A DNA stretch of 64,000 nucleotides from a virus. This document shows positions 22,037 to 48,985 of the stretch, one piece after another. The stretch spans positions 1 through 64,000 of the IMG/VR virus record IMGVR_UViG_3300025288_000013. One strand, written 5' to 3'. The stretch's first letter is position 1; every line of letters begins with the position of its first letter. Position numbers and translations under genes: made by a program. The notes beneath the pieces were generated by a model. That model made no database searches, had not been told where the DNA came from, and saw only the letters and a list, made by a program, of their open reading frames with translations.

Positions 22037-22058
22037 TAAAGCTTGGCACGATTTTTGC
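22037..22058 (+). promoter_or_regulatory. Sigma54-type (-24/-12) promoter, copy 1
   Basis: TAAAGCTTGGCACGATTTTTGC matches TGGCACG-N4-TTGC; identical 22-mer at 48964. Confidence 0.7.
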
Positions 22059-22095
22059 GGTGTATATTATATAAACCAATTAAATTTGTATAAAA

Positions 22096-22299
22096 ATGTA
22101 CAAAGCCCACTTATTTCAAAGCATTGGAAACAATAAACTTCATCCAAGCAGAACACAATGTGGAAGACGCCTATTTAGGAACAATAGAGGAACACATGTT
22201 GTCAAAGGAAAAGAATTTAAAAGACAATATGATGAAGATTCAACTGTTTTGTGTGAAAAATGTTTAGAATGGGCAAAAGAAAACGGAAAGATAATATGA
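22096..22299 (+). CDS. Small Zn-binding hypothetical protein
   Basis: AH...TQCG...CEKC pattern; first gene after the sigma54-type site. Confidence 0.6.
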   Translation: MYKAHLFQSIGNNKLHPSRTQCGRRLFRNNRGTHVVKGKEFKRQYDEDSTVLCEKCLEWAKENGKII

Positions 22300-23120
22300 A
22301 AAAATTTAATTCATTAAAAGATTTGTCGTCAATTTTATCAGATAAAGATAAAAAGGAAATAGAAAAAACATATATCAGTAAACAAAATAAACAAATACCA
22401 AAAATAAAGAAACTTGGTGTATTAAGACTTGTTAAAGAGGCGGTAGAAGATGATATCAATTCATATAAACAAGATGAATTGAGAGATATCAACGTTAAAT
22501 TGTTAAAAGATGTCTTGGATAGAAACAAGGACAACAAACCTTATGACAAGGAATCAATACACGAATATCTAACAGCATTAGGCTGCAAATACATTGTTTA
22601 TGATGATCTATCAGTTGACATCATTGGTGATATCAACATAATTGGTTTCAGAAATTTTATCCCAATAAAGTTTAAAAGCGTTACGAGAAATTTTGTTGTC
22701 AGGGGTGTCAGCATAACAACCATGAAAAACTTTCCAAAAATAATTGGTGGCAATTTGATCGTTTGTAATACTTTATTAAGAGATTTGTCAGAATTCCCAG
22801 AAGTTGTTAATGGGGACATAGATTTACATGGAAACAAAAAACTATTATCTGTTACATTTGGTTTACCAAGTGGTATCGGTAATTTGGATTTAAGTAATTG
22901 TGGTATATCAGTATTCATGCCATTTGATACAATAATTAATGGTAACATTAATCTTAGCAATAACCAATTGAGAACAATAAGTTTAGATTGTATAAACAAA
23001 TCAAGTTCAATAGATTTATCGAGCAATTTTATAATAACAAAGTTAAAAACTAATATAAGCATAGATTATTCTAATAACCCCTGTCAACCAGACGATTCAT
23101 ATGAATCAGCTATGTGGTAG
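22296..23120 (+). CDS. Leucine-rich-repeat-like protein
   Basis: Repeats such as FPKIIGGNL, FPEVVNGDIDLHGN, LDLSNCGI, INLSNNQL and IDLSSNFI. Confidence 0.7.
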   Translation: MKKFNSLKDLSSILSDKDKKEIEKTYISKQNKQIPKIKKLGVLRLVKEAVEDDINSYKQDELRDINVKLLKDVLDRNKDNKPYDKESIHEYLTALGCKYIVYDDLSVDIIGDINIIGFRNFIPIKFKSVTRNFVVRGVSITTMKNFPKIIGGNLIVCNTLLRDLSEFPEVVNGDIDLHGNKKLLSVTFGLPSGIGNLDLSNCGISVFMPFDTIINGNINLSNNQLRTISLDCINKSSSIDLSSNFIITKLKTNISIDYSNNPCQPDDSYESAMW

Positions 23121-23122
23121 TG

Positions 23123-24019
23123 TCACAGGACATTGTTCATAGTAAAACCAACAAGTTTATTATCAATTATATATTGATCACGTGCTTGTGCTGCATCAAA
23201 TTCATCAATAAAAGAGCCAATATGTTTTTGTTTATTGTTTACACAGATTTTTGATATGAATACCGAATCCCTTTTCGAATAATATATGCCAACATATTGA
23301 CTTGTTCTATTTTCTTGTTTTCTTTTATTTCTGTTTTGTATTGATAATGTTGCCCATCTACAATTTGATGGCTCATATCCTTTGTTATTATCAATTCTAT
23401 CAATAGTTAAATCTTTTGTCCACCCATTAGCAATTGACCAATCATAAAAGGCTTTAAAATCATTTTTCCACTCCTCACAAACAGTTATTCCACGACCACC
23501 ATATATTTTAAATGATTTATCGTTTTTATTGTAACATCTTTTTATCATACTGTTATATTTGACATATAACAGATGTTTGCTTAAACCATGTTTATATCCA
23601 TGATTTGACTTACCGAACCTTTTGCAACCACAAGACACAATATCGTTTGATGATACTTGATGTATTGTGGTTTCCCATTCATTTCCACAATGACACAAAA
23701 ATAATGCCTTTCTTTCTTCTCTTCCATCTGGTCTTTTGTATGGATTAACTTCTTTTATAAATTTTATGTTGTTATCCCCAATTTCTTGATCAATACAATA
23801 TTTTATTATGTTTGAACTATTTTTTCTGCACCCACAAGACTTTGTGATATCAGATTTTACTTTGGCTATAATTGCGGAAAAATTTTTGCCACAATGACAT
23901 AAAAATTTACCTCTTCTAAAGATTTTATTTTTTGGAGAAATATATGGTTCAATTTCTTTTATAAACTTTATATTATTATTACCCAATATTTGGTTTTGTG
24001 TATACTTTATTTTAGCCAT
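23123..24019 (-). mobile_element. Free-standing HNH/AP2 homing endonuclease
   Basis: Two FLCHCG...SCGC zinc-ribbon repeats, MIKRCY, YGGRGITVCEEW, TIDRIDNNKGYEPSNCRWAT and a C-terminal AP2 domain. Likely start MAKIKY at 24019. Confidence 0.85.
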
Positions 24020-24024
24020 ATTAA

Positions 24025-24053
24025 AATAACCAAAACAAATAGTTTTTGTTACA
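24025..24053 (-). promoter_or_regulatory. TGTAACAA-N15-GTT promoter (homing endonuclease)
   Basis: Exact motif just upstream of ATG 24019. Confidence 0.7.
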
Positions 24054-24066
24054 ATATCATTTTGTA

Positions 24067-24723
24067 TCAAAATTTAAGTTTTTTCTCACCACCCCTACGA
24101 AAAGGGTCTATATTAATGCTTCGTTTATAGAGAATATAAACAGCTCGAATGTCCTTTTTCTGAACAAATTTGCTTGGAAAAGTTGCCAAACGCCACCAAT
24201 CATAATACGTTAACAACAGCGGTTTGGAACTAATTCTTCCCATTATATAAGACCTAATAGCAAAGGAGAACCCACTACCCTTTAGATATTTTTTTAGATC
24301 AAAATAATTAGTGTTCAATTGTCTTTTGCTTACGCCAGATTTTGCAATATACTTATTAGCCATATCGATCCCACTTTGGTTGACCTCGACAATTTTATCA
24401 AGTATTTTTAACCGTATTTGTGGTGGTATGAACATTAATGCAAGAAACAATGGATGTTTAGTTGTTTGGTGATACCCAACGAATACCCCTATGGGAACGC
24501 TGTTCCAGAATAGTAATTCATCTTTGTATTTTGGATCAAAATAAAAAAAAGTGTAACATTTACCAATTATAAATTGTTTTGCTGATTGATTGTATTCTAT
24601 AAGATCAGCTTCATTTCTGCCAGAGTAATATAACTCTTCGAACCATTTTAAATTTCTATATGACATGGTTGATTCGTTTGTATAAGCTTTTAGCCTCTGT
24701 ATGGTTACGCTTGGTGACTCCAT
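24067..24723 (-). CDS. DNA end-protector protein (T4 gp2-like)
   Basis: GKCYTFFYFDPKYKDELLFWNSVP and FIPPQIR resemble gp2. Confidence 0.7.
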   Translation of the reverse strand: MESPSVTIQRLKAYTNESTMSYRNLKWFEELYYSGRNEADLIEYNQSAKQFIIGKCYTFFYFDPKYKDELLFWNSVPIGVFVGYHQTTKHPLFLALMFIPPQIRLKILDKIVEVNQSGIDMANKYIAKSGVSKRQLNTNYFDLKKYLKGSGFSFAIRSYIMGRISSKPLLLTYYDWWRLATFPSKFVQKKDIRAVYILYKRSINIDPFRRGGEKKLKF

Positions 24724-26285
24724 TAGTTATTTATGTGTTCAATGCCTAACGTTATTGATTCACTTATTACCTCCCCATCTTCAGTTGTAAAGTTATTTGA
24801 TGGTAAGGCTATTTCGTCAACATTTAATATTATGTTTCCTATTGAATCCAGCATGGAGTTTTGTTCAACAATGAACTCAACATAAACAGAATCGATACCA
24901 GCAATATTGTCAACTATTTTTATTATGTCACTTTTTGGTATTTTATTTGTCCTCTTCATAGAAAGCATATAATCGCTAATTTCCTTTCTTATATTTGATC
25001 TTAATTCGTCTATGTTTACTTGTAAGCCATTTGATCCGTTTCTAAATGCATCAGCCTTTATAATCATTGAGTATGACTTTATTGTTGGGTTATATATAAC
25101 AACATCTATGTTTTGACTTCTTTTCACGTTTATCATCTGTAGCAATCTGTCCTTTGTTGTGCTGTTCAACAATATCTTTTTGTGATTAAAATTAAAATAA
25201 TCCTCACTGTCACCAACTATGTTTATTAATTTTGGGAAAAGATATGTTTCAAACAAATTTGGTTGGTTATTGTTAAAAATTTTTACATCACCAAAAAGAT
25301 TAAGTTTTCTTAAGAAATAATCAAGACTTTTCATATCATGGATTATTCTGTTTTTGTTTGCGTTTGGTGCTAATAATTTTGTTTCCTCTATATCTTCTGG
25401 ATCCGAACCAAACAGCAATTCTTGTTCTGGTTTTATTAAGAAAAATCTTTTCATATCAACAGGCTCACCATTTGATTTGTAAGCCACATCTATAAACTCA
25501 AAGATTGGAAAACTCTCATTACCTTTTGACCCATGAATTATTGGATAAAAACACCTTATCTCATTACCAGCCAAAGGTATTTTTGAATTTATAGACTTGC
25601 CAAAAATAATGTCTATGCCGCCAGTCAAACCAGTTCTAACCATAACATTTAATTCTCCATAGACAAAATCTTCAATACCATCATGTATGTCAGCATTTTC
25701 TCCATTTACTTGTATAGTTATATGATTTGTATCTATCATATCACTTTTTGTTGGTATAGAATATGTTTGTATGTCCCGACCATTGCCAACAAATGTTGTT
25801 ATCTTCATTTCGCCCTGAATAACGTTCAGTGACATTTTTTTATCATTAATTATATCATATTTTATGAAGTCATCGCCCAAATTAACATAATATATCAAAT
25901 CGTTTTTTATACATCTTAATTTCATATAATTTGGAAGATATATGATATTTGTTAGTTCTGATAAATCAAGACCTTTGTTCAAAGATAAAGCAATTGAACA
26001 TGTTGCACCCGTGCCTCTATGGGCAGAGTGACCATTTAATTCAGCAAGACCATAGATTGATTCTCTTCTATTGGCTGTTTGATATGACATTTCATTTAAC
26101 GAATCTTTCACATAGTAAACAAGAATCTTAAGATGATTATTGAGAACCAATATTATTTGACCAAATGGATCAGAATAACTGAATATTTGTTTTATCTGTT
26201 TATATTTTTTTATAAAATGGTCAATAGTCTTATCTATGAGTTGTTGACCCTTTATATCCTTTTTATCTAAAAACTGTTGTGACAT
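24723..26285 (-). CDS. Baseplate wedge protein (T4 gp6-like)
   Basis: TANRRESIYGLAELNGH, IIFG...KIP and GSDPEDIEE; exact TATAAATA upstream. Confidence 0.75.
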   Translation of the reverse strand: MSQQFLDKKDIKGQQLIDKTIDHFIKKYKQIKQIFSYSDPFGQIILVLNNHLKILVYYVKDSLNEMSYQTANRRESIYGLAELNGHSAHRGTGATCSIALSLNKGLDLSELTNIIYLPNYMKLRCIKNDLIYYVNLGDDFIKYDIINDKKMSLNVIQGEMKITTFVGNGRDIQTYSIPTKSDMIDTNHITIQVNGENADIHDGIEDFVYGELNVMVRTGLTGGIDIIFGKSINSKIPLAGNEIRCFYPIIHGSKGNESFPIFEFIDVAYKSNGEPVDMKRFFLIKPEQELLFGSDPEDIEETKLLAPNANKNRIIHDMKSLDYFLRKLNLFGDVKIFNNNQPNLFETYLFPKLINIVGDSEDYFNFNHKKILLNSTTKDRLLQMINVKRSQNIDVVIYNPTIKSYSMIIKADAFRNGSNGLQVNIDELRSNIRKEISDYMLSMKRTNKIPKSDIIKIVDNIAGIDSVYVEFIVEQNSMLDSIGNIILNVDEIALPSNNFTTEDGEVISESITLGIEHINN

Positions 26286-26303
26286 ACCAAAATTTTCATT
26301 ATG

Positions 26304-26311
26304 TATTTATA
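26304..26311 (-). promoter_or_regulatory. T4-type late promoter TATAAATA (baseplate wedge)
   Basis: Exact T4 late consensus 19 nt upstream of the start. Confidence 0.6.
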
Positions 26312-26322
26312 CACATATACAA

Positions 26323-26351
26323 GAAAGGAGAGATATGATACCTCTCCTTTC
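26323..26351. terminator. Hairpin downstream of SSB, probable terminator
   Basis: GAAAGGAGAG...CTCTCCTTTC 10-bp stem. Confidence 0.55.
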
Positions 26352-26377
26352 ATGAGTTAATAGAAAAATAAAACTAT

Positions 26378-27535
26378 TTAATCTTTTGAGAATTCTGCAA
26401 ATTCATCATCCTCTTCTAATCCAGCTGGTAGTTCATCATTTTCAGCATAAACGCCATTATTTTCTGGTTCCACATTTGTTTCTGCAAATTCATCTGTGGT
26501 TTCTATCTCTTCAACTTCTTCTTCAACTTCTCCTTCAACTTCCATCTTCATACCACTTTTTGAAACTGTTTTACCAGATGCAACTGTTTTACCTGCACCA
26601 AAATAAGACTTACCATATGTCTTTTTATAAACAGTATCAAACACGTGATCATCTTCCAAAGTCATTCTAACAGATTCAATAATCATTTGCTCAAGTTCTG
26701 GCGTCCATTCTTTTGCTTCATAGTCAGCCAGATTTGGTGATTCAGCTTTTAGGTAGTTAAAAATGGCAACTACATATTCTTTTGATTTTTCAATCTTACC
26801 CTCGTATCCAGGGATTTTTAGGATAGTTGTGTTCTTTTGGAATTCAGATTGCTCATAACTTGTCATAGTTTTCTTTTGACCAGTTTTGTCATCTTCATAT
26901 TCTTTTTCACGAACATCAACAATAAAATTCACACCATCAAATGGGTGACTATAATTAACCCCAACCTTTTCAACAGATGGATCACTTGTTGTGACCTTTT
27001 CAATGATTTCTTCAACTTGTTTAGCAAATCTAAAGATTTTTACTTTTCCATTGAGGTCTGGTTGTATCGAATCTTTTATTATTTGAAATAAAGTGAAAGA
27101 ATACTGTTTTCTGCTGAAATGTCTTTTACCAAGAGATTTCAATGCTGGTGAACTTGAATTTCTACAATAGAAAAACGCCTTTGTTATGATGTTATCTCTT
27201 TGTCCCCAATTTGATGTACAATCAACAACCAATTTACCATCTGGGTTATCTGGGTTTGGTAAAAAGTACATGAATTTCGTTAGAACATTCAATTTTTTCT
27301 CTGGCGTATTAAAAGGATTTGGAACAAATCTTCCTAACGCTCTGTAATTTTTGTTTAATACACCATCTTGTGACAATGAAAGATTATAGATATTTTCATC
27401 ACCACCGCCAGAATCAGCTACTTCATGTACAACAACATCATCAATTGTGTTGTCCATTATGCCGCCAAATTCTAAATTTTCTTCTACTTGTTTTTTGACA
27501 GATTCTTTGCTGTCTTGCTTTTTTGTGTCAGCCAT
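26378..27535 (-). CDS. Single-stranded DNA-binding protein (T4 gp32-like)
   Basis: RFVP, GKVKIFRF, HPFDGVNF and SYEQSEF motifs; long acidic tail. Confidence 0.8.
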   Translation of the reverse strand: MADTKKQDSKESVKKQVEENLEFGGIMDNTIDDVVVHEVADSGGGDENIYNLSLSQDGVLNKNYRALGRFVPNPFNTPEKKLNVLTKFMYFLPNPDNPDGKLVVDCTSNWGQRDNIITKAFFYCRNSSSPALKSLGKRHFSRKQYSFTLFQIIKDSIQPDLNGKVKIFRFAKQVEEIIEKVTTSDPSVEKVGVNYSHPFDGVNFIVDVREKEYEDDKTGQKKTMTSYEQSEFQKNTTILKIPGYEGKIEKSKEYVVAIFNYLKAESPNLADYEAKEWTPELEQMIIESVRMTLEDDHVFDTVYKKTYGKSYFGAGKTVASGKTVSKSGMKMEVEGEVEEEVEEIETTDEFAETNVEPENNGVYAENDELPAGLEEDDEFAEFSKD

Positions 27536-27582
27536 GTTTTTAATTTTAATTAATATTATTGATTTAAATGATTTTACATAAA

Positions 27583-27611
27583 ATAAACCATGAATTATTA
27601 GGATTGTTACA
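27583..27611 (-). promoter_or_regulatory. TGTAACAA-N15-GTT promoter (SSB)
   Basis: Exact motif and spacing. Confidence 0.8.
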
Positions 27612-28263
27612 AACTATAAAACAAATAAAATTTTCTACCATTTATTATATGTTCAGATGATTTTCTCGTTGTATTTGATTTAATACAATCATACATGGCT
27701 ATTTTTTCTTTGTTATCAGATAAACTATCAAATTTATCATAAATATTTATAGAATGAGATTTGTCTTCCATGTTATCATAAAGATATTTACACAAATAAA
27801 AGAACTCCATATCATTAATGTCACAATTGTTTTTCGTGCCAGCATAAACGAATACGCCCATAGTGACAACACAATCATCCATTCTAAACCATTCTACAAA
27901 ATCGAGATAATCGAGATAATCTATAAAAGTTCTTATGCCATTCTCTTTTGTCTGCCCCCAAGTACCGTCACCAAATAATTCATATATTATTGTTTCACCA
28001 TCAGAGTCAACAACTATGTTGGTAGTGGTTATAATATCAAAATCTTCACTAACAGCCGTATTGTCAATAACACATATGTTATTAAAATCAAATTTTTTGG
28101 TTGTACTCACAACATTATATAAAATAAATCTATCATTATTAGACATTTTACCCATTGTTTTTTTGTCAAAGAATAATTGTAGATAATATGATATATAATC
28201 CAAATAAGGTTTATCATACCTTATCTCGTCAAGATTGTGATTATTTATATAATTTATTACCAA
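27607..28263 (-). CDS. Hypothetical protein
   Basis: Coupled to the polymerase gene. Confidence 0.55.
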   Translation of the reverse strand: MVINYINNHNLDEIRYDKPYLDYISYYLQLFFDKKTMGKMSNNDRFILYNVVSTTKKFDFNNICVIDNTAVSEDFDIITTTNIVVDSDGETIIYELFGDGTWGQTKENGIRTFIDYLDYLDFVEWFRMDDCVVTMGVFVYAGTKNNCDINDMEFFYLCKYLYDNMEDKSHSINIYDKFDSLSDNKEKIAMYDCIKSNTTRKSSEHIINGRKFYLFYSL

Positions 28264-31094
28264 AACAATGCTCCGTTTATATCGTTTAAATCATATTTTA
28301 GTTCATTAGCCCCATCGATAAGCTTAAGCATACTGTTTACAGGTGCTAATATCAATGTTTCAAATTGTTTTTTGTAATCTGCTTTTGGGTGTGTGTGTGG
28401 CAATCCTTCATTTATAGGAAAACCAAAAACCATTGTTTTTTTGGTACTACCCTTTACATAATAGACACCTATTCTGTCACCATTTGATATGAGTTTATAT
28501 TTTTCGCACCCAGTTTGTGTTTTTATCCAGTTATTATAATAACCAGCTGCTTTACTGTTCATTGGTGCGCCAGAAACAAATGTTAATGGGTTGTCTGATG
28601 ATATGTATTTGTAAACATCGTTGACCCTTTCAACAGCACATATGTCTTGTATATCACATTTATTGAACATTTCTTTTATTTGTTTTACTTCATCTATTAT
28701 GGGTTTCATCTTAAAATCAGATGTTTGTTCCATAATCTTTATTGTTATTTTTTTAAGACTTTCTCTAACAAATTTTGGCTTACTTCCTTGATTCATTTCA
28801 ACACCCTTTGGGTTAAGTTTTTCTAACAATTTGTAAAAAGAACCCTCTGACCAACTTGTGTTTTTTATATATTTTTTCTTTTTTATAAAAAGGATTGATG
28901 CATTTATTTGTTCCAATCCAAGCCCGAAACTTTCTTCACCATCTGGTTTTGTTCTGAACGCCCCCCATTTATCACAATACTTTTTCATGGATTGTATAGA
29001 GAATTCATTTAAAATGTGTTTATGTGTATCTAAACAAAATTCCCTCCTCCAGGAGTTTATCTCATTTGCCTTATCATTTAGCAGATTTGTTTTATCGGTT
29101 AAAGATAAACCAACTAATTTGTCTTCGTATTTTAAATCAGTATCCTTTTTGAATTTTATCCATTCTTCTGTGTTATTTATGACATTCTTCATGTGAACAA
29201 AAACAGAATCAGTATCAGCATAAACAATAACATCTTCGTCTAATTCTTTTGTCACGGTTATCCCCATTAATTTGTGTGATTCTTTGTCATTGTGCCACTT
29301 ATTTCTGAAGTAATCGTTGAACTCTGAAATTGTATATTTTAGTAAATCTCTACTTTGCGACGTGACACTACTTGCAACATCTATATTAAACAATGGAAAT
29401 CCAGACCAACCAAGAACACCATAAATAGAATTCATTATAATTTTCATGGCTGCAGCCTCATTACCATAAATCATAGACAGTTTTTCAAGCCTACTTATTT
29501 CTTCTGCCCTATTTATACTATAATTGTCGATATTTATGTGTTTTGGGTTATCAATTTTCGTCCCATTTTTGATAGCATTTAATTCGGCATCGATTTCCTT
29601 ATTCCATACCTTACGTTGAACCCTACCATTAAACAACGAGAATACCATTTTTCTTAAAGAAGAATCACCTTTATCTTTTAAATAAACTATTCCGTTTGGT
29701 GATATTATGTGTTTAGATTTATCTATTTTTATTTCCTTTTCGTCAGCATCAGATGCAAATGTTATGTAATCAGATGTTTTTCCAATCTTTGTGTCTATTC
29801 CATAATTAAAAGCCATCATACCAGATGGAAACATGGACGTAAAATCATATATCATAACATCATCGACCATACCTCTTTTAAGCGGTTCCAAAACATATCC
29901 GCCAGCGTATGTTGAATTTTCATTGTTGAATTTGTTTATGAATACTTGATTGTTTTCATAATACCAGTCACAAAACAACTTTTCGCACATCATACCAGCA
30001 AACAATGAATCATGTATGGGAACGCCAACAAAAGATGAAAGTGCCAAAGGCGTATCAAATGTGTTTGTTTTCCTGTCTATAAGTTGAACGAGAATGCTAT
30101 CAACGGCATTATAAAATAAAAATGTTTTATAATCATTTCTGTAAAGTTCGTCAAGAGTTGACGGGTGATGAACTTTATTGATACCAAGAACATTTTCAGC
30201 AACAGCATCAAGAGATAAAGCTGTTTTTAATGACCTATCAAATTTTCCATAAATTTCCATATAATCAAGAGTTGGTGAATGATATGGTACAGGAATGTTT
30301 ATCTTCTCTTGATTTTTTGCATATTTATCAGCAACACGTAAAACAAAATGGTTATTTGTTGGACTAGCCTTGTGCATAAACTTATAATTTCTTTTATATT
30401 GTTCAATATTATCAAGATCAAACCCATACATTGTTATACCACGATTTGACAAATATTGATCATCAAATTTCAAACTGTTCCAACCAAACAACATGTTTAT
30501 TTCATGTTTTCTTTTATTGTTCATAGCTGTCATAAGCCGCTCTTCTGATTCATACATTGTGTAATTAACAATATATGGTTCTTTCAACAAACTTTTGTCC
30601 TTTATCTTTTTGACGTGTTCATTTATCCTTAATTCTATGCCATTTATGTCACTCATTGATAATTGTTTCAATCCGAAGATTTCAACTAAATATCCCGTTA
30701 CAAAAACATTTGATAACACAGCATGTTTTGGGTTACCCGCATTTGGGAAAGAACCTATGGATTCAGTTTCTATATCGAAAAATGTTTTTTCTGGTTGATT
30801 CTGTTTATAAAACAACTCTTTTAGGTCTTTCGGTAAACCCTGAAGAAGTTCATATATTCTATATTTTGATAATTTTTTATATTTTTTAAGGGGTATTTTC
30901 CTTACAGAATTACCGTATGCGGATTTAAAATTTTTATCAGCATATGGGTTGTTTGGATTGCACTCTTCCCATTCGTACAACTCTTTTTTTGATATGTTTA
31001 ATTTTTTTAGCTGTTTTTTACCATTGTTGTCCCAATAAGAAATGAATATATGTGATGGCAGACCATCTACTAAAACTTGTTCTAAATGTATCAT
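28257..31094 (-). CDS. polB: Family B DNA polymerase (T4 gp43-like)
   Basis: Exonuclease motifs FDIET, GWNSLKFD and YNAVD; polymerase motifs YDFTSMFPS, KIIMNSIYG, YADTDS and KKKKY. Confidence 0.95.
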   Translation of the reverse strand: MIHLEQVLVDGLPSHIFISYWDNNGKKQLKKLNISKKELYEWEECNPNNPYADKNFKSAYGNSVRKIPLKKYKKLSKYRIYELLQGLPKDLKELFYKQNQPEKTFFDIETESIGSFPNAGNPKHAVLSNVFVTGYLVEIFGLKQLSMSDINGIELRINEHVKKIKDKSLLKEPYIVNYTMYESEERLMTAMNNKRKHEINMLFGWNSLKFDDQYLSNRGITMYGFDLDNIEQYKRNYKFMHKASPTNNHFVLRVADKYAKNQEKINIPVPYHSPTLDYMEIYGKFDRSLKTALSLDAVAENVLGINKVHHPSTLDELYRNDYKTFLFYNAVDSILVQLIDRKTNTFDTPLALSSFVGVPIHDSLFAGMMCEKLFCDWYYENNQVFINKFNNENSTYAGGYVLEPLKRGMVDDVMIYDFTSMFPSGMMAFNYGIDTKIGKTSDYITFASDADEKEIKIDKSKHIISPNGIVYLKDKGDSSLRKMVFSLFNGRVQRKVWNKEIDAELNAIKNGTKIDNPKHINIDNYSINRAEEISRLEKLSMIYGNEAAAMKIIMNSIYGVLGWSGFPLFNIDVASSVTSQSRDLLKYTISEFNDYFRNKWHNDKESHKLMGITVTKELDEDVIVYADTDSVFVHMKNVINNTEEWIKFKKDTDLKYEDKLVGLSLTDKTNLLNDKANEINSWRREFCLDTHKHILNEFSIQSMKKYCDKWGAFRTKPDGEESFGLGLEQINASILFIKKKKYIKNTSWSEGSFYKLLEKLNPKGVEMNQGSKPKFVRESLKKITIKIMEQTSDFKMKPIIDEVKQIKEMFNKCDIQDICAVERVNDVYKYISSDNPLTFVSGAPMNSKAAGYYNNWIKTQTGCEKYKLISNGDRIGVYYVKGSTKKTMVFGFPINEGLPHTHPKADYKKQFETLILAPVNSMLKLIDGANELKYDLNDINGALFW

Positions 31095-31117
31095 TTTTTT
31101 GTTAAAATTTACAATTA

Positions 31118-31146
31118 AAAAACTGTTGGAACAAAAAATTGTTACA
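31118..31146 (-). promoter_or_regulatory. TGTAACAA-N15-GTT promoter (DNA polymerase)
   Basis: Exact motif and spacing. Confidence 0.8.
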
Positions 31147-32833
31147 ATTCACTGTCATTAGCCTTTTTACTGTTTTTTATTGATTCATTCTCGTTCCATT
31201 CCTCTTGTGTCATAAAGTTAAACCTTTTAACAAACAAATATTCTAAATCAAACGCTGGTTCTCTATCAGCACCAGTAAATCTTGTCATTTGATCTATATT
31301 TGATAGAACCTTTGTGTTCTTTTCAGCCTCTTTTGCCTCTATATAATGACTAAATGATTCCCATCTATATTTTATTTTATTTTTTATACCTTTATCAAGT
31401 ATGGATTCTGGGTGTTTTATATAAACAAGTGCTAATGTTGGCTGTTTTATTAAATTTGAAAATTGGTGTAACACCCTATCCAAATAGTTATAAAAGTTTA
31501 TTTCGTCATAAGGAACCCCATCAGCCTTGTACAATGATAATTGACCAACATTACCACCCTTATTGTATCTACTTGATGGTATTTTTGAACTTCTTATGAA
31601 GTTCTCTCTAAAATAATCCACTATGTCCATATTTTTCAAATCCCAACCACTAAATTTGACGGTGTCAACTTCTGGTTTTCTGCCGTTTCTTTCAGCAACA
31701 ACTATATTATTCATATAATTAAATGATGATTCTCCATTGATTCTAACAATACCGTTGTTGTCAACTTCAAAATTGTCCATATATTTGTTTCTTATTTTTG
31801 ATATAGCCATTTTTGCTTTGTGCGACACTTTTGTCATTATTGGAACAACCATCTTCTGCCTATACATAGAATTTAATATGGTCCAAGCAACAATGGAGAT
31901 TTCTATTCTATTCATTATATTGAAATCTCTAATTATGCTGTCAGCATAACTAATCTTTCTATTGTAAACCATAGTCATTCTTGACTTTGGCAGATTGTTT
32001 CCATCTATGTAATTATAATCAACAACAATTATCTCGTCCTGATCATAATAATTTTGTTTATATTGCCATATCTTCCTTTTTGGGTTATCATCATATCTAC
32101 CCTCTTTTAAGTAAATTACGTTTAATTTTTTGATACTATCTATACCAACAACAACAACACTATCATATTCAGCTTTTTCGTTTTCTTTGTCATAGCCAGT
32201 CATTATAGTTTTATATTTTACACTTTCAAGAAGTTTAATTTTTTTTATTGAAGCGTTTTTGCTTTCAAACAATTTTTTTCTATTTGTCTTGTCTTTATTT
32301 AAATCTATATCTACTAATTTCAGATGTTCTTTCGTTTTCTCTATCTCTTTTTCTATCTCTGATTTCTTTCTGTATTGAAATTTTATTCTATAGGCAAGTT
32401 TACCATAACATGACCATTCAAAAAATCTTGACCATGCCTCTATATGATTGTCGAACCCAAGAAGAGATAATACCTTTTTGTCACTTTCTATTATTGTTTT
32501 TTCTATTGATTCGCTAACCCCAGACACGCCCAATTCATAGAATCTTCCACTTGTGTCAGGAACAATGGCATTATCACACAATTTTTCTATTGTATCTTTT
32601 AATTCGTTGTTCAAATCCACTTGTTTTCTTATATAATCATACTTTTCATCAACATTCATATCATGTGTATCATCATTCATGACATCTTGTGTATCATCAT
32701 ACAATTCGTCATCATCAAGTTCTCTATCCATGCTGCTGCCAGACATTTTTGATACGGCACGTGAGTTATTGTTCAGCCTGCTCTTTGAAATCAATTTTGT
32801 TGTGGAAATTCTGTTGTAATAATTATAGATCAT
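31142..32833 (-). CDS. Portal protein (T4 gp20-like)
   Basis: IEKLCDNAIV, FFEWSCYGK, IEISIVAWTI, DIVDYF, KIPSSR and DEINF. Confidence 0.8.
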   Translation of the reverse strand: MIYNYYNRISTTKLISKSRLNNNSRAVSKMSGSSMDRELDDDELYDDTQDVMNDDTHDMNVDEKYDYIRKQVDLNNELKDTIEKLCDNAIVPDTSGRFYELGVSGVSESIEKTIIESDKKVLSLLGFDNHIEAWSRFFEWSCYGKLAYRIKFQYRKKSEIEKEIEKTKEHLKLVDIDLNKDKTNRKKLFESKNASIKKIKLLESVKYKTIMTGYDKENEKAEYDSVVVVGIDSIKKLNVIYLKEGRYDDNPKRKIWQYKQNYYDQDEIIVVDYNYIDGNNLPKSRMTMVYNRKISYADSIIRDFNIMNRIEISIVAWTILNSMYRQKMVVPIMTKVSHKAKMAISKIRNKYMDNFEVDNNGIVRINGESSFNYMNNIVVAERNGRKPEVDTVKFSGWDLKNMDIVDYFRENFIRSSKIPSSRYNKGGNVGQLSLYKADGVPYDEINFYNYLDRVLHQFSNLIKQPTLALVYIKHPESILDKGIKNKIKYRWESFSHYIEAKEAEKNTKVLSNIDQMTRFTGADREPAFDLEYLFVKRFNFMTQEEWNENESIKNSKKANDSEL

Positions 32834-32897
32834 AATGTTTGTGTGTATGTTGATACATAAATAATAAAATATATTTATTAGTTTTTGTTACAACAAG

Positions 32898-38528: not shown

Positions 38529-38556
38529 CAACTACAAAAACCATAAACAAACATGG

Positions 38557-38585: not shown

Positions 38586-38602
38586 ACTAACAAAATTGTA
38601 GC

Positions 38603-40758: not shown

Positions 40759-40769
40759 TTACAGTTAAT
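40741..40769 (+). promoter_or_regulatory. TGTAACAA-N15-GTT promoter
   Basis: Exact motif upstream of 40786. Confidence 0.7.
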
Positions 40770-40785
40770 GTAAAAATTATTTATT

Positions 40786-41238: not shown

Positions 41239-41256
41239 ATAACATAAATTCTATTT

Positions 41257-42135: not shown

Positions 42136-42146
42136 AAACAAATACT

Positions 42147-42175
42147 TGTAACAATCTAACACTACAAAGGTTTTT
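42147..42175 (+). promoter_or_regulatory. TGTAACAA-N15-GTT promoter (HU)
   Basis: Exact motif and spacing. Confidence 0.8.
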
Positions 42176-42221
42176 TATGGGTAAATAATTTAAATATTAA
42201 TCAATTAAAAACAGAAAAATT

Positions 42222-42527
42222 ATGACAAAAGCTGATTTAATTACTGGCGTAAAAGCTGCAGTAGAAAAAGAAACTGGTAAAGACGTTTCAAAAAAAATGG
42301 TAAAATCCGTAATCGATTCCACGTTGGAAGCTATTAATGGATGTATGGAAAAAGGTGAAGAATTATTGTTACAACCTGTCGGAAGATTTGGTGTAAAATT
42401 CAGAAACCCTCGTAAAGCAACTAACATGACAACTGGTGAGCCTATTGCTGTTCCAGCCAAATATGTTCCCCATTTTTCTCCAACTAGCAAATTGAAAGAT
42501 GCTGTTGCCTCACTACCTGTTGAGTAA
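42222..42527 (+). CDS. hup: HU/IHF-family DNA-binding protein
   Basis: MTKADLI, GRFGVKFRNPRKATNMTTGEPIAVPAK and FSPTSKLK. Confidence 0.9.
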   Translation: MTKADLITGVKAAVEKETGKDVSKKMVKSVIDSTLEAINGCMEKGEELLLQPVGRFGVKFRNPRKATNMTTGEPIAVPAKYVPHFSPTSKLKDAVASLPVE

Positions 42528-42549
42528 CTACAAATTTACAGTTTAAGTT

Positions 42550-42583
42550 AAAAGCCTATGGTAAAAATATCATAGGCTTTTTT
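42550..42583 (+). terminator. Rho-independent terminator after HU
   Basis: AAAAGCCTATG-loop-CATAGGCTTTTTT. Confidence 0.8.
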
Positions 42584-42611
42584 GTAACAATCTATTCATA
42601 AAACAGTTTAT
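42583..42611 (+). promoter_or_regulatory. TGTAACAA-N15-GTT promoter (primase-exonuclease-GroES-purZ operon)
   Basis: Exact motif, immediately after the HU terminator. Confidence 0.8.
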
Positions 42612-42616
42612 AACAT

Positions 42617-43666: not shown

Positions 43667-44256
43667 AAAAAACAATAATATTCGACACAGAAACAACAGG
43701 CATTGTGCCAAAAGGTATGATGTACAAAGACCCAAATTATCCAAGATTATTACAACTTGCATGGGTAATATTAGATGAAGATGGGAACGAATTAGACAAA
43801 AGAAAAAACTATATAAAACCGAATGGGTTTTTAGTACCAAACACAGAATTTCACAAAGCAAATGGTTTGACACAAGAGGTGTGTGACAAAGGTGAAAACC
43901 CAATAGACGAATTGAATTTTTTGCTTGATGCTATTGAAAAATCAGAAGTTTTGTTGGCACATAATATGTTATTTGATTATTTTATAATAGCTTCAGAATT
44001 ACACAAAAACAACATAATTAGGAAAATAGAAAGGAAACCTAAGTATTGTACAATGATGTCAACAATAGATTTTTGCCAACTACCGTCACCATATGGAAGA
44101 GGATTTAAATTTCCTCGTTTGGAAGAACTTTATAAAAAATTGTTCAACGAAACTTTTGAAAATGCACATGATGCGTTTGCTGATGTAAAGGCTACCGCAA
44201 GATGCTATGTTGAATTAAATAGACTTGGTGTACCAATAAAAGAAGTATTAAAATGA
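43663..44256 (+). CDS. DEDDh 3'-5' exonuclease (DnaQ-like)
   Basis: FDTETTG, AHNMLFD and AHDAFADV. Confidence 0.9.
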   Translation: MKKTIIFDTETTGIVPKGMMYKDPNYPRLLQLAWVILDEDGNELDKRKNYIKPNGFLVPNTEFHKANGLTQEVCDKGENPIDELNFLLDAIEKSEVLLAHNMLFDYFIIASELHKNNIIRKIERKPKYCTMMSTIDFCQLPSPYGRGFKFPRLEELYKKLFNETFENAHDAFADVKATARCYVELNRLGVPIKEVLK

Positions 44257-44624
44257 GAGTACCAGGAACCAACATAATAGTTGAACAAAATAGCGATCCA
44301 AATAAGGTTATTGGTAATATCATATTTGATCATAGCAAGAAATATACAAAAAATATGGGTGTTGTTAAATACCTTAGTAAGTTTTGTGAAACAAATCGTG
44401 GAACAATTTGTGATATAAATATTGGCGATATAGTTCACTTTTCTGATGAAGCTGGTGTATATATTGACAAAAAAAACATGAAAAACATTCTATTGATAGA
44501 TTACAGAGAAATAATACTAATATCTGAATCAGAAGAAAACGAAATTTTTGTTGGCGAGGACATGAGATTTTATTTAGAAGAGGACATAGCAAACAGACAA
44601 ATGGAAAAAACATCTAATAATTAA
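44253..44624 (+). CDS. GroES-like co-chaperonin
   Basis: GVV...INIGDIVHFSDEAG...LLIDYREII. Confidence 0.55.
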   Translation: MRVPGTNIIVEQNSDPNKVIGNIIFDHSKKYTKNMGVVKYLSKFCETNRGTICDINIGDIVHFSDEAGVYIDKKNMKNILLIDYREIILISESEENEIFVGEDMRFYLEEDIANRQMEKTSNN

Positions 44625-44635
44625 ACAAACACAAA

Positions 44636-45919
44636 ATGAAACAAACAAAACGAACAAAAACGAACAATTTCTTTAAAAATGGTAAAATATCATTTGTAAT
44701 GGATGGTGCAGCTGGTAGTTCAGGCAAAAGCTTAATATCGTCGTATTTAGTGAAACATGCTAACAATGTTGATTTTATATTATCAGCCTTTACGCCAAAC
44801 GCAAGTCACACAGTTATAGATGATGATGGCAAAGAATTTGTTTTTAAAATTTTTGCAGGTGGTTCACAATACCACGAAAAACTAAAAGCTGTTTATATAA
44901 CAGATAATGCTGCAATAGAGTTAAAAACTCTGTGGAAAGAGATTGACTATCTTGGTATACCAAAAGAAAAGGTTAGAATTTCTCCAATGTGCATGATAGT
45001 TCAACAAATAGACATTGATTATGAAGCTGGACTGTGTGATCTTGATGGAAATTATTATTCAAAGAACGAGTTGAGGGATGGTACTGTTAAAACAGGGAGC
45101 ACTTGTTCTGGTAGTGGCACTGTTTTGGCTAAAAAGGTTCTTAGAAATAAGACACTGGTAAAAGCCAAAGATGTTGAAGAACTGAAAGAGTTTTTGTATG
45201 AAATGGATGAAATAATTTCAAGACTTGAAACAGGTGATAGAGGTTTAATGGAAATGGCACAAGGGTTTCCATTGTCAGTGAATCATCACATGTTTGCACC
45301 GCATACAACAAGTAGAAATGTTACAGTTACTAATGCTATGAATGATGCTATGATACCACCAAGATTTGCTGGTAACGTTTTAATCAACTTTAGAACGTAT
45401 CCAATCAAAATTCATAGTAATAAGTATAAATGTAACAAAACCGGTAAGTTTCTTACATGGGATGAGGTGAACAAGATGAAGACTGATATTGATTATGTTG
45501 TTGTTGAATCAAATTCTGGCGACTTTTATCCTGATCAAACAGAAATGAGTTGGGATCAAATAACCAAAGAATCTGGGTCTGAAAAGAAACTCATGGAATG
45601 CACAACACTTACAAAATTACCAAGAAGAATAGCTTCATTTAGTAAACAAAATCTTGTAGAGGCAATTAGATTCAATGACACAGGTGGTCAAATTTGGTTA
45701 TGTGTTAATTTTGTTAATTATGTTGTTTCTGGAATCTATGGTGAAAGGGAGTATTTTAACTTACACATTGACTTTGAAAAATATGAAAAACTTCACAATT
45801 GGATTCATGAAAACATAACCAGAGTTATATATGCAGACAATTCTATAGACGAAACAAGAGTTTCTCTTAAATATCTTGGTACAGGTGAAAAAATCGAAGA
45901 TAGAATAGAAATGCCATAA
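44636..45919 (+). CDS. purZ: PurZ-type N6-succino-2-amino-dAMP synthase (adenylosuccinate synthetase paralog)
   Basis: GSSGKS (Ser in place of the PurA catalytic Asp), PNASHT, GSTCSG, AQGF, TTSRNVT, RTYPIK, TTLTKLPRR (Leu at the PurA Arg303 position) and NFVNY (instead of TKLD). Confidence 0.85.
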   Translation: MKQTKRTKTNNFFKNGKISFVMDGAAGSSGKSLISSYLVKHANNVDFILSAFTPNASHTVIDDDGKEFVFKIFAGGSQYHEKLKAVYITDNAAIELKTLWKEIDYLGIPKEKVRISPMCMIVQQIDIDYEAGLCDLDGNYYSKNELRDGTVKTGSTCSGSGTVLAKKVLRNKTLVKAKDVEELKEFLYEMDEIISRLETGDRGLMEMAQGFPLSVNHHMFAPHTTSRNVTVTNAMNDAMIPPRFAGNVLINFRTYPIKIHSNKYKCNKTGKFLTWDEVNKMKTDIDYVVVESNSGDFYPDQTEMSWDQITKESGSEKKLMECTTLTKLPRRIASFSKQNLVEAIRFNDTGGQIWLCVNFVNYVVSGIYGEREYFNLHIDFEKYEKLHNWIHENITRVIYADNSIDETRVSLKYLGTGEKIEDRIEMP

Positions 45920-45979
45920 CCAAAATCATTTCACAAAACAACGCTCATAAAATAAATAACTAAACAGTAAATCTATTTT

Positions 45980-47773
45980 ATGAGCGTTGTTGTAAATGAG
46001 CGTTGGTCAACAAAAAGAATTGATGAACTTATAAAGAATTTCAATAAAATTGGCGTTATACCAGACAAGCATCCATTCTTTAATAGAAAAATAGGTAAAA
46101 GGAAAGGTGAAATCAACTTCAGTTGGACACAAGAAGAACTTTTAGAATTATCAAGATGTGAAAATGATATAGTTTACTTCGCAAATACTTTTTGTAAAAT
46201 TCTTACTGATGGTCACGGAAGACAATTTTTAAAAGATGTTGGCGGTATAAGAGATTATCAGGAAGATCTTTTAAAAATGTTTCAGGACAGCCAATTCAAC
46301 ATTGTTTTGGCTTCAAGACAAATTGGTAAGTCTATTACAGTTGCTATATATGTGTGTTGGTATTTGTTGTTTAATGATGATGCTAACATACTTCTTTTAT
46401 CAGAAACAGGTACAAAAGCAAAAGATTTACTTAAAAAGATAAAAGACATACAGGACAACTTACCATTTTACATGCAAGTTGGTTTATTATATGATTCAAC
46501 ACAACGAAGAATTTATGATAATGGTTGCACACTTATTAGTGAAAACACAACAGAAAATAGCGGTGTTTCTGGGTCGTATCAATTCGTTTATTGGGATGAA
46601 ATGGCATTATTAGACGCACCAACACAAGAAAAGATTTTTACTGGTGTATTCCCAACAATGGCAAGTTTTGGTAATAAAGCCAAGTTTATTATAACAAGCA
46701 CACCAAGAGGAAGAAACAATAAATTTCATAACATATGGAACGGTGCTACAAGTGAACTAGATTCACCAGAATATGTGCCGTTTTCATATGCAAAGGTCAT
46801 GTGGCATCAGGTCAAGGGTAGGGGTGAAGAATGGGAAAGAAAAGAAAGGAAAATAATGGGGGATGATGGTTTTGATAGAGAGTATGGATTATCTTTTGAT
46901 GCTGATGGCGATTTGCTTATAAGTGACGAAAATAAAAAGAAAATAAGCAGCAATTTTGTTAAATATGTAAGATATGAAAAAGATCACAAATTTTACAAAT
47001 TATTCAGTCATCACCCAGATTTCAAAGTATCCATGTTATCTGATCCAGAAAGAAAATTTCATATATCAATCGACATAGCTGGTGGAAAGAAGAGAGATTA
47101 TACTGTGTTTAATATATTTGAATTGAAATTCAAATCTTATGATGAAATAAAAGATATGGATTTTATCGTTGACGAAATGGACTTCTTTAAATTAGAACAA
47201 GTTGCTATAATAAGAAGTAATGTTATAAAAACAGAAATAATGGCTATGTACCTTTATGACTTTATCATAAAGTATATGATTCCACATAATATTAGAATAA
47301 CCATAGAAATTAATTTTGAGGGCAAGTTTTTTCTAAAGAATTTGTTTGATTATAAAGGTAGAAAGAATGAACTTAATAATTCAAGAGAAGATATGATTGT
47401 AGAATATCCACTGAACATGAATTTTGATAAAGACAATGCCATATATGAATTTGGAATAGTTCAAAACGAAAAAACTAAACAAGATACATGCAAGACCATA
47501 AACACGGTTATTCGTGACAACCATATTGTTATAAACCACAGTGTAACTGTTGAGGAGGGTTTGGCGTTTGGCTTGAACAAAAAAGGCAAATATCAAGGTT
47601 TATCAAAAAACGATGATTGCTTCATGACTGTTTTGAATATAGCAAATTATAAAAAAACAGATGAATATGAAGAGCAGGTTAATGAAATAATAAATAATTT
47701 GGATTCTTATCAATTAGAACTAATAAGCAAAATAGTTGGTGAAGATGATGAAGAAGATGATGACATATATTAA
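45980..47773 (+). CDS. Terminase large subunit (T4 gp17-like)
   Basis: DYQ, SRQIGKS, YWDEMA, ITSTPRG, SIDIAGG...DY and NDDCFM. Confidence 0.95.
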   Translation: MSVVVNERWSTKRIDELIKNFNKIGVIPDKHPFFNRKIGKRKGEINFSWTQEELLELSRCENDIVYFANTFCKILTDGHGRQFLKDVGGIRDYQEDLLKMFQDSQFNIVLASRQIGKSITVAIYVCWYLLFNDDANILLLSETGTKAKDLLKKIKDIQDNLPFYMQVGLLYDSTQRRIYDNGCTLISENTTENSGVSGSYQFVYWDEMALLDAPTQEKIFTGVFPTMASFGNKAKFIITSTPRGRNNKFHNIWNGATSELDSPEYVPFSYAKVMWHQVKGRGEEWERKERKIMGDDGFDREYGLSFDADGDLLISDENKKKISSNFVKYVRYEKDHKFYKLFSHHPDFKVSMLSDPERKFHISIDIAGGKKRDYTVFNIFELKFKSYDEIKDMDFIVDEMDFFKLEQVAIIRSNVIKTEIMAMYLYDFIIKYMIPHNIRITIEINFEGKFFLKNLFDYKGRKNELNNSREDMIVEYPLNMNFDKDNAIYEFGIVQNEKTKQDTCKTINTVIRDNHIVINHSVTVEEGLAFGLNKKGKYQGLSKNDDCFMTVLNIANYKKTDEYEEQVNEIINNLDSYQLELISKIVGEDDEEDDDIY

Positions 47774-47802
47774 TGTAACAAAAGTTAATATTGTGGGTTT
47801 TT
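47774..47802 (+). promoter_or_regulatory. TGTAACAA-N15-GTT promoter
   Basis: Exact motif upstream of 47837. Confidence 0.75.
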
Positions 47803-47836
47803 TATTAAATTATTATTAACTAAAACAGTAAAAATT

Positions 47837-48364
47837 ATGAAAAACATTAAATTTAACATATCATCATTGGTGATATGGACCAGGTTTCTTTGGCTAATAC
47901 CATACAAAAAAGAAACAAAAACTTGTATTGATTCCATAACAATTGATGGTGTCGATAAAACAGCTGAAGATGGAATAAGAAGTATTGATGAAGCACTTGC
48001 AGATTGGTCTTCAATAAATCAATCTGTTAATAGGGAATTATCACAAGCCAAAGATATATGTAATAAGCTATCAAATCACATAGCCATAAAATCATGTGAC
48101 CCAATACTACCAAGTTTCAGATCTCTTGTTGCAGAATTATTTGTCGCACAAACCATTAGAGAGTTTGAAAAAGGAACAAAAATTGGTGAAAATTTGAAAA
48201 CCTTTATGTCACTAAACCGAATTGATACCAATAAAAACCTGGACATTTCTGTTTATGAAGATATTTGGGCAATAACCAAGAAAAAATTACATGTTTTTCA
48301 TAGAAACGTTTATTGTTTCAAGATGATAATGGATGATAAAATGTTTACCATAACTTTCAAGTGA
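47837..48364 (+). CDS. Hypothetical protein
   Basis: Middle-type promoter upstream. Confidence 0.55.
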   Translation: MKNIKFNISSLVIWTRFLWLIPYKKETKTCIDSITIDGVDKTAEDGIRSIDEALADWSSINQSVNRELSQAKDICNKLSNHIAIKSCDPILPSFRSLVAELFVAQTIREFEKGTKIGENLKTFMSLNRIDTNKNLDISVYEDIWAITKKKLHVFHRNVYCFKMIMDDKMFTITFK

Positions 48365-48966
48365 TAATTATTGTGGACGACAGAAAAGACATAAATTATA
48401 AAACGGTTGAACTATTTGATGATAGTTCAACCGTTTTTATAAATAAGAATGTTGTGTCCTCTGAATACCTATCATCTGATGAAATCCAAAAATACCAAGA
48501 CAACGAATTATTTGAAAGCATAGTAAAAACGTTTTACAAAATAAATCACAAAATAAATCCAAAATATAGAACTTGTATTGATTCTATTTTAACAGATGCT
48601 TATTTAGTTAACACACCAATTTCTTACGACAATTGTAACGACTATAAAATTTTGTACAGAAGAGATAATACGTGCATAATATCAAATGGAAAAAATGTCT
48701 TAGAGGTTAATATCAACAACATTAGTATAGAACATGGCAATATAGGTTCAGAAGTTATATCATATATTTTTTCAGAGATTTACAAAATTTTAAAAAACGA
48801 CATAAATGATTATACAAAATTTTTCATTTATTTTTCAGACATTTTTAACATAGAATACAAAGATTTGTATGACAATGTGTCATATAAACATAGAACAACC
48901 ATAGAATCAACCATAAAAAACAAATTCAAGTATTTGTTTTCAAACACAGATGCAGCAATGTGGTAA
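48361..48966 (+). CDS. Hypothetical protein
   Basis: GTGA-coupled to the previous gene. Confidence 0.55.
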   Translation: MIIIVDDRKDINYKTVELFDDSSTVFINKNVVSSEYLSSDEIQKYQDNELFESIVKTFYKINHKINPKYRTCIDSILTDAYLVNTPISYDNCNDYKILYRRDNTCIISNGKNVLEVNINNISIEHGNIGSEVISYIFSEIYKILKNDINDYTKFFIYFSDIFNIEYKDLYDNVSYKHRTTIESTIKNKFKYLFSNTDAAMW

Positions 48967-48985
48967 AGCTTGGCACGATTTTTGC
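48964..48985 (+). promoter_or_regulatory. Sigma54-type (-24/-12) promoter, copy 2, upstream of the sigma factor
   Basis: TAAAGCTTGGCACGATTTTTGC, identical to 22037-22058. Confidence 0.7.

Follow-up and report, generated by a model that had tools for sequence, protein, structure and literature searches.

The window analysed here is a 64-kb stretch of DNA, i.e., positions 1 to 64,000 of a virus record of 110,222 bp (IMG/VR IMGVR_UViG_3300025288_000013) with a CheckV completeness of 64%. The record represents an uncultured T4-like groundwater phage of the virulent type, which encodes a T4-type portal, terminase and clamp loader as well as a gp32-like protein. Two intergenic regions of the window harbor the same 22-nucleotide (nt) element, TAAAGCTTGGCACGATTTTTGC, referred to below as class 1, of which exact copies are found at 22037-22058 and 48964-48985, both on the + strand. 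The element resembles promoters that are read by the bacterial sigma factor sigma-54 (also named RpoN), and the second copy is followed by the gene of a 360-amino-acid (aa) protein with the features of an extracytoplasmic-function (ECF) sigma factor. The original prediction, made from the window, had combined these observations into a cascade leading from sigma-54 to the ECF-type factor and further to the late genes.

The class-1 element and its likeness to sigma-54 promoters

The two copies in the window and the genes behind them are arranged as follows.

22037-22058, + strand: putative class-1 promoter, copy 1, with TGGCAC at 22044-22049 and TTGC at 22055-22058; start predicted at ~22071 by nifH numbering
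22096-22299, + strand: first gene behind copy 1, a 67-aa open reading frame (ORF) with Cys pairs and no family match
22260-23120, + strand: second gene of the small + strand unit behind copy 1, 286 aa, no Pfam or PHROG match, weak homolog (28% identity) in the phage MaF61
48964-48985, + strand: putative class-1 promoter, copy 2, identical 22-mer; start predicted at ~48998
49038-50120, + strand: predicted ECF-type sigma factor of the phage, 360 aa, with sigma region 2, a region-4-like helix-turn-helix and C-terminal MORN-type repeats

That the two 22-mers are identical, as had been claimed, is confirmed; no further match with up to three mismatches is found in the window and none in 100 shuffles, and the core TGGCAC-N5-TTGC is found in the window at these two sites only. 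The genome-wide scan that had been proposed extends the pair to a family. In the whole contig, TGGCACGATTTTTGC is found as nine exact copies (two on the + and seven on the - strand), as compared to zero for a reversed control pattern, and the number of exact TGGCAC-N5-TTGC sites expected by chance, estimated from the base composition, is ~0.04. A degenerate tenth copy, TGGCATGATTTTTGT, is located at 96540 on the - strand, such that eight of the ten copies lie outside the window. All ten lie between genes and share the orientation of a gene that starts with an ATG 27-63 nt downstream; none is antisense or intragenic. For the pair in the window, a distance of about 40-50 nt to a gene start had been given; counted from the final C to the next ATG, it is 37 nt (22096) for copy 1 and 52 nt (49038) for copy 2.

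Eight copies are found at 83-100 kb, where small genes form an array on the minus strand that resembles a plastic early region. Behind the copies lie genes for orphan proteins of 44-232 aa, for an NAD-dependent DNA ligase (98121-99977) and for the 360-aa protein. In several copies, copy 2 among them, the upstream ORF is terminated by the TAA of the block. Within the array, one contig from sequencing run X3 joins contig positions 96472 and 84510 (L023:14472 to L023:2510), both of which carry the leader segment ATAAACCAATAAAGTCTTAGAAATAAGCATA behind class-1 copies; this joint reflects either recombination or an assembly jump over the repeated cassette.

The block AAAGCTTGGCACGATTTTTGC is unvarying across the copies except for one G-to-A change. 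In the exact copies all 21 positions are fixed, including the AAAGCT flanks and the ATTT spacer. The sequence further downstream, AATGTATATTATATAAACC, is common to six copies and is quite different at 48971, 86766, 95353 and 96540. Because the -24/-12 block is kept while the TATA-rich part downstream varies, selection presumably acts on the -24/-12 block, a pattern of conservation that is the opposite of that expected for a promoter driven by a -10 element. The element is also asymmetric and therefore unlike the operator of a dimeric repressor. Reads of four DNA runs, aligned with the contig, revealed near-identical strains only; none of the listed strain variants falls inside a 21-mer, an uninformative result since only ~0.4 would be expected. 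No RNA run was found to contain this DNA.

All nine exact copies read CTTGGCACGATTTTTGC(A/T/G), i.e., GG at -24 and GC at -12 at a spacing of 10 bp, and fit the consensus YTGGCACGrNNNTTGCW. The core conforms to TGGCACG-N4-TTGCW and is identical at 15 of 16 bases to the core of the Sinorhizobium (S.) meliloti nifH promoter (TGGCACGACTTTTGCA), i.e., the promoter used for electron cryomicroscopy of the sigma-54 holoenzyme (PMC6028918). The numbering of that promoter (PMC6028918) places the start 13 nt past the GC, at the A of a recurring ATAAAC (~22071 and ~48998). For copy 1, a -10 reading would place it at ~22076, only ~5 nt away. The fit to the RpoN consensus on which the original prediction was built thus holds at the sequence level, for a promoter-like element that is strictly oriented and intergenic.

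Phage and bacterial sites (nifH and the Flavobacterium (F.) psychrophilum motif SM4; PMC9723704) have in common the GG/GC spacing, the full core, a T-run before the GC and a short leader. The phage sites differ in being a ten-copy cassette with a fixed spacer and fixed flanks, at which no upstream site, site for integration host factor (IHF) or activator gene is seen. Furthermore, the phage sites head orphan genes and the phage sigma gene, whereas the bacterial ones head stress, nitrogen or motility genes.

The same 15-19-mer is found before clpB, grpE, secA, hsp20, a type IV pilin gene and a sigma-70-family gene in unrelated bacterial and metagenome contigs. Exact 19-mers in metagenomes are about as numerous as expected from random flanks on abundant sigma-54 promoters, which shows that the sequence does occur in bacterial promoter contexts and does not imply a preference for these flanks. 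An 18-mer was rejected as a host identifier: its 44 matches in species genomes, a few of them archaeal, are spread over many phyla, and ~17 are expected by chance (an estimate). An apparent preference of Bacteroidota for the exact 15-mer was dropped as ascertainment bias, the five genomes in question having been preselected for the 18-mer. In one uncultured Bacteroidales genome (G007), 8 of 14 TGGCACG-N4-TTGC sites carry the ATTT spacer of the phage, with secA behind one of them. A cellular sigma-54 regulon can therefore be spacer-uniform too. Seven more candidate ORFs lie behind ATTT-spacer sites in this genome (L088-L095).

The ECF-type sigma factor and the other promoter classes

Taken as a single sequence, the 360-aa protein gives a weak match to Sigma70_r2 (PF04542; E 0.013) and is assigned to no Pfam or PHROG family. 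A profile of its family (A2, 28 members) matches ECF sigma factors in the PDB, i.e., 5uxx, where regions 2 and 4 are both aligned, SigK (4nqw) and RpoE (2q1z). Sigma70_r2 is found in 10 of the 28 members (E <= 0.01) and MORN_2-type tail repeats in 16. Thus, as had been claimed, copy 2 precedes a sigma gene; with both region 2 and region 4 represented, the product is, by profile comparison, an ECF-type (group 4) factor of the sigma-70 family. An AlphaFold model of the protein from four sequences (pLDDT 54) was too poor for a structure search, and a PDB profile search using four sequences only returned nothing relevant.

Further promoter-like motifs are found upstream of the sigma gene and elsewhere in the contig. 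Those in the window, which were located by motif scans, and two associated features are listed below.

47774-47799, + strand: candidate class-2 promoter, TGTAACAA-N15-GTT, upstream in the + strand block of the sigma gene
48400-48441, no strand assigned: perfect 12-16-bp hairpin followed by T5, terminator-like, located downstream of the class-2 promoter at 47774 and upstream of the sigma gene
31121-31146, - strand: candidate class-2 promoter of the DNA polymerase gene (28257-31094), located 52 nt upstream of it
5301, 10642, 38557, 40741, 42147, 42583 and 47774, + strand: class-2 sites
19787, 24053, 27611, 31146, 35682 and 61334, - strand: class-2 sites
42222-42527, + strand: HU-type DNA-binding protein, behind the class-2 promoter at 42147
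32834-32897, no strand assigned: divergent intergenic region with ATAAATA before the T4-type portal gene (31142-32833)

Class 2 is defined by TGTAACAA-N15-GTTT, of which the contig holds ~25 copies with fixed spacing, upstream of 17 genes (1.2 expected). These include the genes for the DNA polymerase, the gp32-like protein, an HD-domain protein and the clamp loader, guanylate kinase (gmk) and HU, and a deaminase operon. In this motif, the -35 element contains AAC and is separated by 16-17 nt from a short G/C-T -10 element; an AAC-containing -35 element and such spacing are typical of ECF sigma promoters. We infer that the phage sigma factor probably reads the class-2 motif. Read-through from the class-2 promoter at 47774, by which the sigma factor would activate its own gene, is doubtful because of the terminator-like hairpin that lies between the two, and class-1 copy 2 is therefore the most obvious promoter of the sigma gene. 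The hairpin is spanned by a 201-aa ORF (48361-48966) in which no ATG is in frame ahead of the last three codons and an ATAAATA follows just after the hairpin; as a candidate gene it possibly starts at a GTG at 48454.

A third motif, ATAAATA (class 3), is located 15-45 nt before 24 genes (3.6 expected), including those for the portal, the terminase and large structural proteins; examples are the genes at 1082-5269, 7695-10253, 13323-16637, 31142-32833, 45980-47773, 52189-54234 and 57388-59406. Class 3 resembles, at the level of the motif, the T4 late promoter TATAAATA. The class-1 copy at contig position 86766 also carries ATAAATA, i.e., the gene behind it may have both an early and a late promoter. 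PHROG and PDB searches with a 214-aa ORF beside the gp47/gp46-like genes and with nine other ORFs yielded no gp55 homolog, and no homologs of gp55, gp33, MotA or AsiA were found in the 110 kb. A reading of GCTT as a MotA box was discarded, given that its spacing to -10-like elements misfits and that no MotA or AsiA homolog is seen. Neither sigma-70-type promoters nor those of the Bacteroidota sigma-A (TTG...TAnnTTTG) are enriched upstream of genes in the contig, which leaves class 1 as the only promoter class of host type in the 110 kb.

Host, the relative MaF61 and known phage cascades

A Shine-Dalgarno site precedes 4 of 131 genes, as compared to 5.2 in controls, i.e., there is no enrichment, and positions -3, -6 and -11 to -13 are A-rich. 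The lack of this signal together with an A-rich start context is the Bacteroidota pattern; the class-1 genes, too, are like Bacteroidota genes in having no Shine-Dalgarno site. The best match to the DNA polymerase in a phage collection is that of Flavobacterium phage MaF61 (32% identity, E 7e-110). The absent Shine-Dalgarno signal and MaF61 as the nearest isolate together point to a host among the Bacteroidota. No tRNAs were found in the contig, which gives no clue to the host from this side. A blastn comparison of the record with the phage collection gave no match, and no relatives were found among viral and metagenome contigs with the sigma protein, the sigma alignment or the DNA polymerase as query.

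The DNA-binding domain of RpoN is found in 38 of 41 sampled genomes of the class that includes G003, a metagenome-assembled genome labelled Chitinophagales. In F. psychrophilum, the sigma-54 motif SM4 with mapped starts heads groES-groEL, lon, dnaK, grpE-dnaJ, htpG and clpB, the genome encodes three enhancer-binding proteins, and reporter mutagenesis confirmed the role of the motif (PMC9723704). A reporter plasmid, transcription-start maps and sigma-54 promoter mutagenesis thus exist for Flavobacterium (PMC9723704). In Flavobacteriia and Bacteroidia, a comparative study has found the predicted sigma-54 regulon to be enriched for chaperone genes (PMC12316311).

The nearest cultured relative, MaF61 (PQ858689.1), has a complete genome of 167.8 kb and shares 41 of 131 proteins at 23-43% identity, including a PurZ-like enzyme. 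Its late motif, ATAAATA, precedes 26 genes (4.0 expected). Its middle motif, TGCAACAA-N15-ATTA, has the architecture of class 2 (an 8-mer, N15 and a 4-mer) in other letters, i.e., TGCAACAA...ATTA instead of TGTAACAA...GTTT, and its sigma homolog (L111:1084-1788, - strand; 234 aa, 27% identity, E 8e-14) is without the MORN tail. The sigma factor and the middle motif thus co-vary between the two phages, which supports the pairing of the sigma factor with class 2. The entry point differs: no sigma-54-type sites are found in the complete MaF61 genome, and a three-copy element of ~65 nt upstream of its sigma gene fits the Bacteroidota sigma-A pattern TTG-N20-T(A/T)nnTTTG.

MaF61 68494, 52615 and 50483, - strand: sigma-A-type element in three copies

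The two phages would therefore share a layout in which a host-read promoter leads to a phage sigma factor, to middle and then to late genes, with a different host sigma factor at the entry.

Textbook lytic phages start on the host housekeeping sigma factor or bring their own polymerase. Phage-encoded sigma factors act in cascades in T4 (early, middle and late, with gp55), in Bacillus phage SPO1 (gp28 and then gp33/34) and in phiEco32, which has an ECF-like sigma factor. The scheme discussed here is like these in that host-read early promoters would lead to a phage sigma factor and a new promoter class, and in that the late motif resembles T4 TATAAATA. Unlike in these phages, the promoters at the entry point fit sigma-54 and not the housekeeping sigma factor, and the middle sigma factor is ECF-like with a MORN tail. 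The class-1 cassettes also resemble the PeSL cassettes of T4, where a promoter and a leader of ~60 nt are repeated before small orphan genes in a plastic region; they differ from them in the type of promoter, and no associated stem-loop is seen. Full-text literature searches found no phage whose early genes were shown to run on sigma-54; the nearest items are a weak, HHpred-based "sigma-54-like" annotation in a Pectobacterium phage and the early AAA+ protein of a T4-like coliphage that is discussed below.

The proposed cascade and its alternatives

From these data, the 22-mer is probably the core of a host-dependent class of start-up promoters, at which the sigma-54 holoenzyme of the host would start the cascade together with an activator. 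Host RNA polymerase with sigma-54 would dock on the GG and GC at -24/-12 and start ~13 nt past the GC, at the conserved ATAAAC. The sigma factor made from copy 2 would then read the class-2 promoters of replication and nucleotide-metabolism genes, and the structural genes would use the separate T4-type late motif ATAAATA with another factor. The first two steps of the cascade are supported at the level of sequence, and the late step appears to have a T4-type motif of its own. The scheme of the original prediction is therefore not simply one of ECF to late: the part leading from the sigma factor to class 2 is supported by the ECF-like motif and its co-variation in MaF61, and the part in which the same factor would lead to the late genes is not supported, given the separate ATAAATA motif with another factor.

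The main difficulty is the missing partner. For a sigma-54 closed complex to open, an ATP-driven enhancer-binding protein is required, and the original prediction had noted that no such activator is visible in the window. Neither an activator nor an RpoN is found in the whole 110-kb contig, i.e., in 64% of the genome. Sigma54_DBD, Sigma54_CBD and Sigma54_activat (PF00158) match nothing in the contig even at lax thresholds, and neither a GAFTGA-like motif nor an RpoN box is found in its six frames. PF14532 (Sigma54_activ_2) gives a weak match on the gp44-like clamp loader alone, and a Pfam scan of 40 further ORFs, comprising nearly all those of at least 200 aa, revealed the clamp loader and a gp46-like ATPase and no enhancer-binding protein. 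The 250 nt upstream of the ten copies hold no common motif beyond chance and no IHF consensus site. A defining requirement of sigma-54 promoters is thereby left unaccounted for. Help from the phage HU, which had been suggested, does not fit: the HU gene lies behind a class-2 promoter and HU is therefore not an immediate-early product, such that, with no IHF-type sites either, it would not assist in the first round unless packaged in the virion.

Other observations likewise speak against a sigma-54 entry. The invariant flanks and spacer could indicate a second or different reader; sigma-54 is not known to need AAAGCT flanks or an ATTT spacer. In an even sample of 300 other genomes of the class of G003, the exact 15-mer gave 3 matches as compared to 2 for the reversed control, i.e., the exact spacer is not a property of that class. 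The three-copy element of MaF61 shares AAAGCTTG.ACGATT with class 1 and yet is without the GG-N10-GC core; this may reflect either common descent of the cassettes with a switch of promoter class, or a second reader. Early promoters of the sigma-A type, an activator or a sigma-54 homolog may also be located in the 36% of the genome that is missing. Finally, the host is assigned by indirect evidence, and sigma-54 dependence, timing, host and activator are all deduced from DNA sequence.

Several alternatives account for the same sites. If the promoters are of the sigma-54 type and the phage itself supplies a sigma-54 homolog or the activator ATPase, from the unsampled third of its genome or from the virion, class 1 would be delayed-early. 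The CheckV completeness of 64% and the existence of a 122-kb contig with an identical portal protein leave room for such a gene, and an early AAA+ protein of a T4-like coliphage has a fold like that of enhancer-binding proteins (bioRxiv 10.64898/2026.10.06.757011); it is without GAFTGA, however. With no RpoN or enhancer-binding domain or motif in the 110 kb, and no sigma-54-type promoters in the complete MaF61, we consider this a minor possibility. A lineage-specific phage factor that reads the whole 21-mer, i.e., an unrecognised sigma factor, a protein associated with RNA polymerase or a repressor for early shut-off, would explain why all 21 positions are fixed, flanks and spacer included, and why AAAGCTTG.ACGATT recurs in MaF61 in an element without GG-N10-GC; the likeness to sigma-54 promoters would then be coincidence or a relic. 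A chance fit to 11 consensus positions with exact spacing, however, has an estimated probability of ~1e-6 per motif. In contrast to dimer operators, the 21-mer lacks symmetry and is co-oriented in every case, and class 2 is the better partner for the one sigma-like gene that was found. A repressor acting over a sigma-54 promoter would add to a sigma-54 entry rather than replace it. This explanation is unlikely.

The element might instead be a housekeeping-sigma promoter (TTGGCA-N16/17-TATTAT or TAGTAT), where the conserved block would be a -35 element and an operator. The two copies in the window match at 10 of 12 and 9 of 12 positions, but in this AT-rich DNA such matches are at or below the shuffle background (29 vs 35.1 and 18 vs 19.1). 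The copies at 86766, 95353 and 96540 have no -10-like hexamer at the right distance while the -24/-12 block is kept, and the presumed Bacteroidota host uses TTG/TAnnTTTG (PMC9723704), to which the element is a misfit; a housekeeping promoter is thus very improbable. Least credible is that the sites bind the sigma-54 holoenzyme without serving as promoters, acting instead as decoys by which host sigma-54 is titrated or as roadblocks placed between gene cassettes. Sigma-54 closed complexes are stable without an activator, and neither an activator nor an upstream activator site was found, both of which would suit a decoy. All ten sites, however, face a start codon 27-63 nt away, none being antisense or intragenic, one of them precedes the sigma gene, on which the next promoter class depends, and ten sites are few for a sponge.

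With a sigma-54 entry as the preferred reading, the activator would most likely be a host enhancer-binding protein acting from solution, since the phage DNA in hand has no activator gene or common upstream site. In a Bacteroidota host, it could be that of the sigma-54 chaperone and envelope-stress regulon, and it is plausible that the phage cassettes behave like host stress promoters and borrow their activator. Less likely sources are a gene in the missing third of the genome or a factor delivered with the virion. A more far-reaching version, which we put forward tentatively, is that host sigma-54 gates the whole lytic programme: the stress of injection or infection would engage the chaperone or envelope-stress activator, which would act from solution on ten promoters of maximum affinity without activator sites and so lead to the phage sigma factor, by which the rest of the genome would be unlocked, and the entry would have evolved from a MaF61-like sigma-A cassette via a few base changes, after which the cassette spread.

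If a sigma-54 entry is true, the first step of infection depends on an ATP-driven signalling switch of the host, i.e., a built-in sensor of host physiology, and defines a new vulnerability, in that rpoN or activator mutants should resist the phage. The phage and MaF61, with the same three-tier layout and different host sigma factors, would offer a natural comparison for the swapping of promoter classes.

A few further observations concern the chemistry of the DNA and possible relatives. The window encodes a PurA-like (PurZ-type) enzyme at 44636-45919, an HD-domain protein at 5350-5955 and a NUDIX domain fused to a large protein at 61335-63968. The PurZ-like gene is also found in MaF61 (43% identity), such that a genome with 2-aminoadenine may be typical of the lineage. 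That the choice of a promoter read as duplex and opened by ATP is tied to such a genome is speculative, and this variant is weakened because MaF61 has a PurZ-like gene and yet a sigma-A-type promoter. A C-5 cytosine DNA methylase gene is located at contig 103314-104378 (L024:8314-9378) on the - strand, and the class-1 block contains AGCT and AAGCTT.

A viral contig of ~110 kb (G001; GC 0.33; L011) carries four sigma-54-like sites within 0.8 kb (~108.2-109.0 kb), including a head-to-head pair 5 nt apart; a tblastn search of the phage proteins against 13.6 kb fetched from this contig gave no match. A metagenome contig of 1887 bp (OFJB01015949.1; GC 0.30; L035) has ATAAAGCTTGGCACGATTTTTGCATTA at its end and codes for a protein with weak homology (29% identity) to the 953-aa protein of the phage; it is probably from a distant relative with the same promoter.

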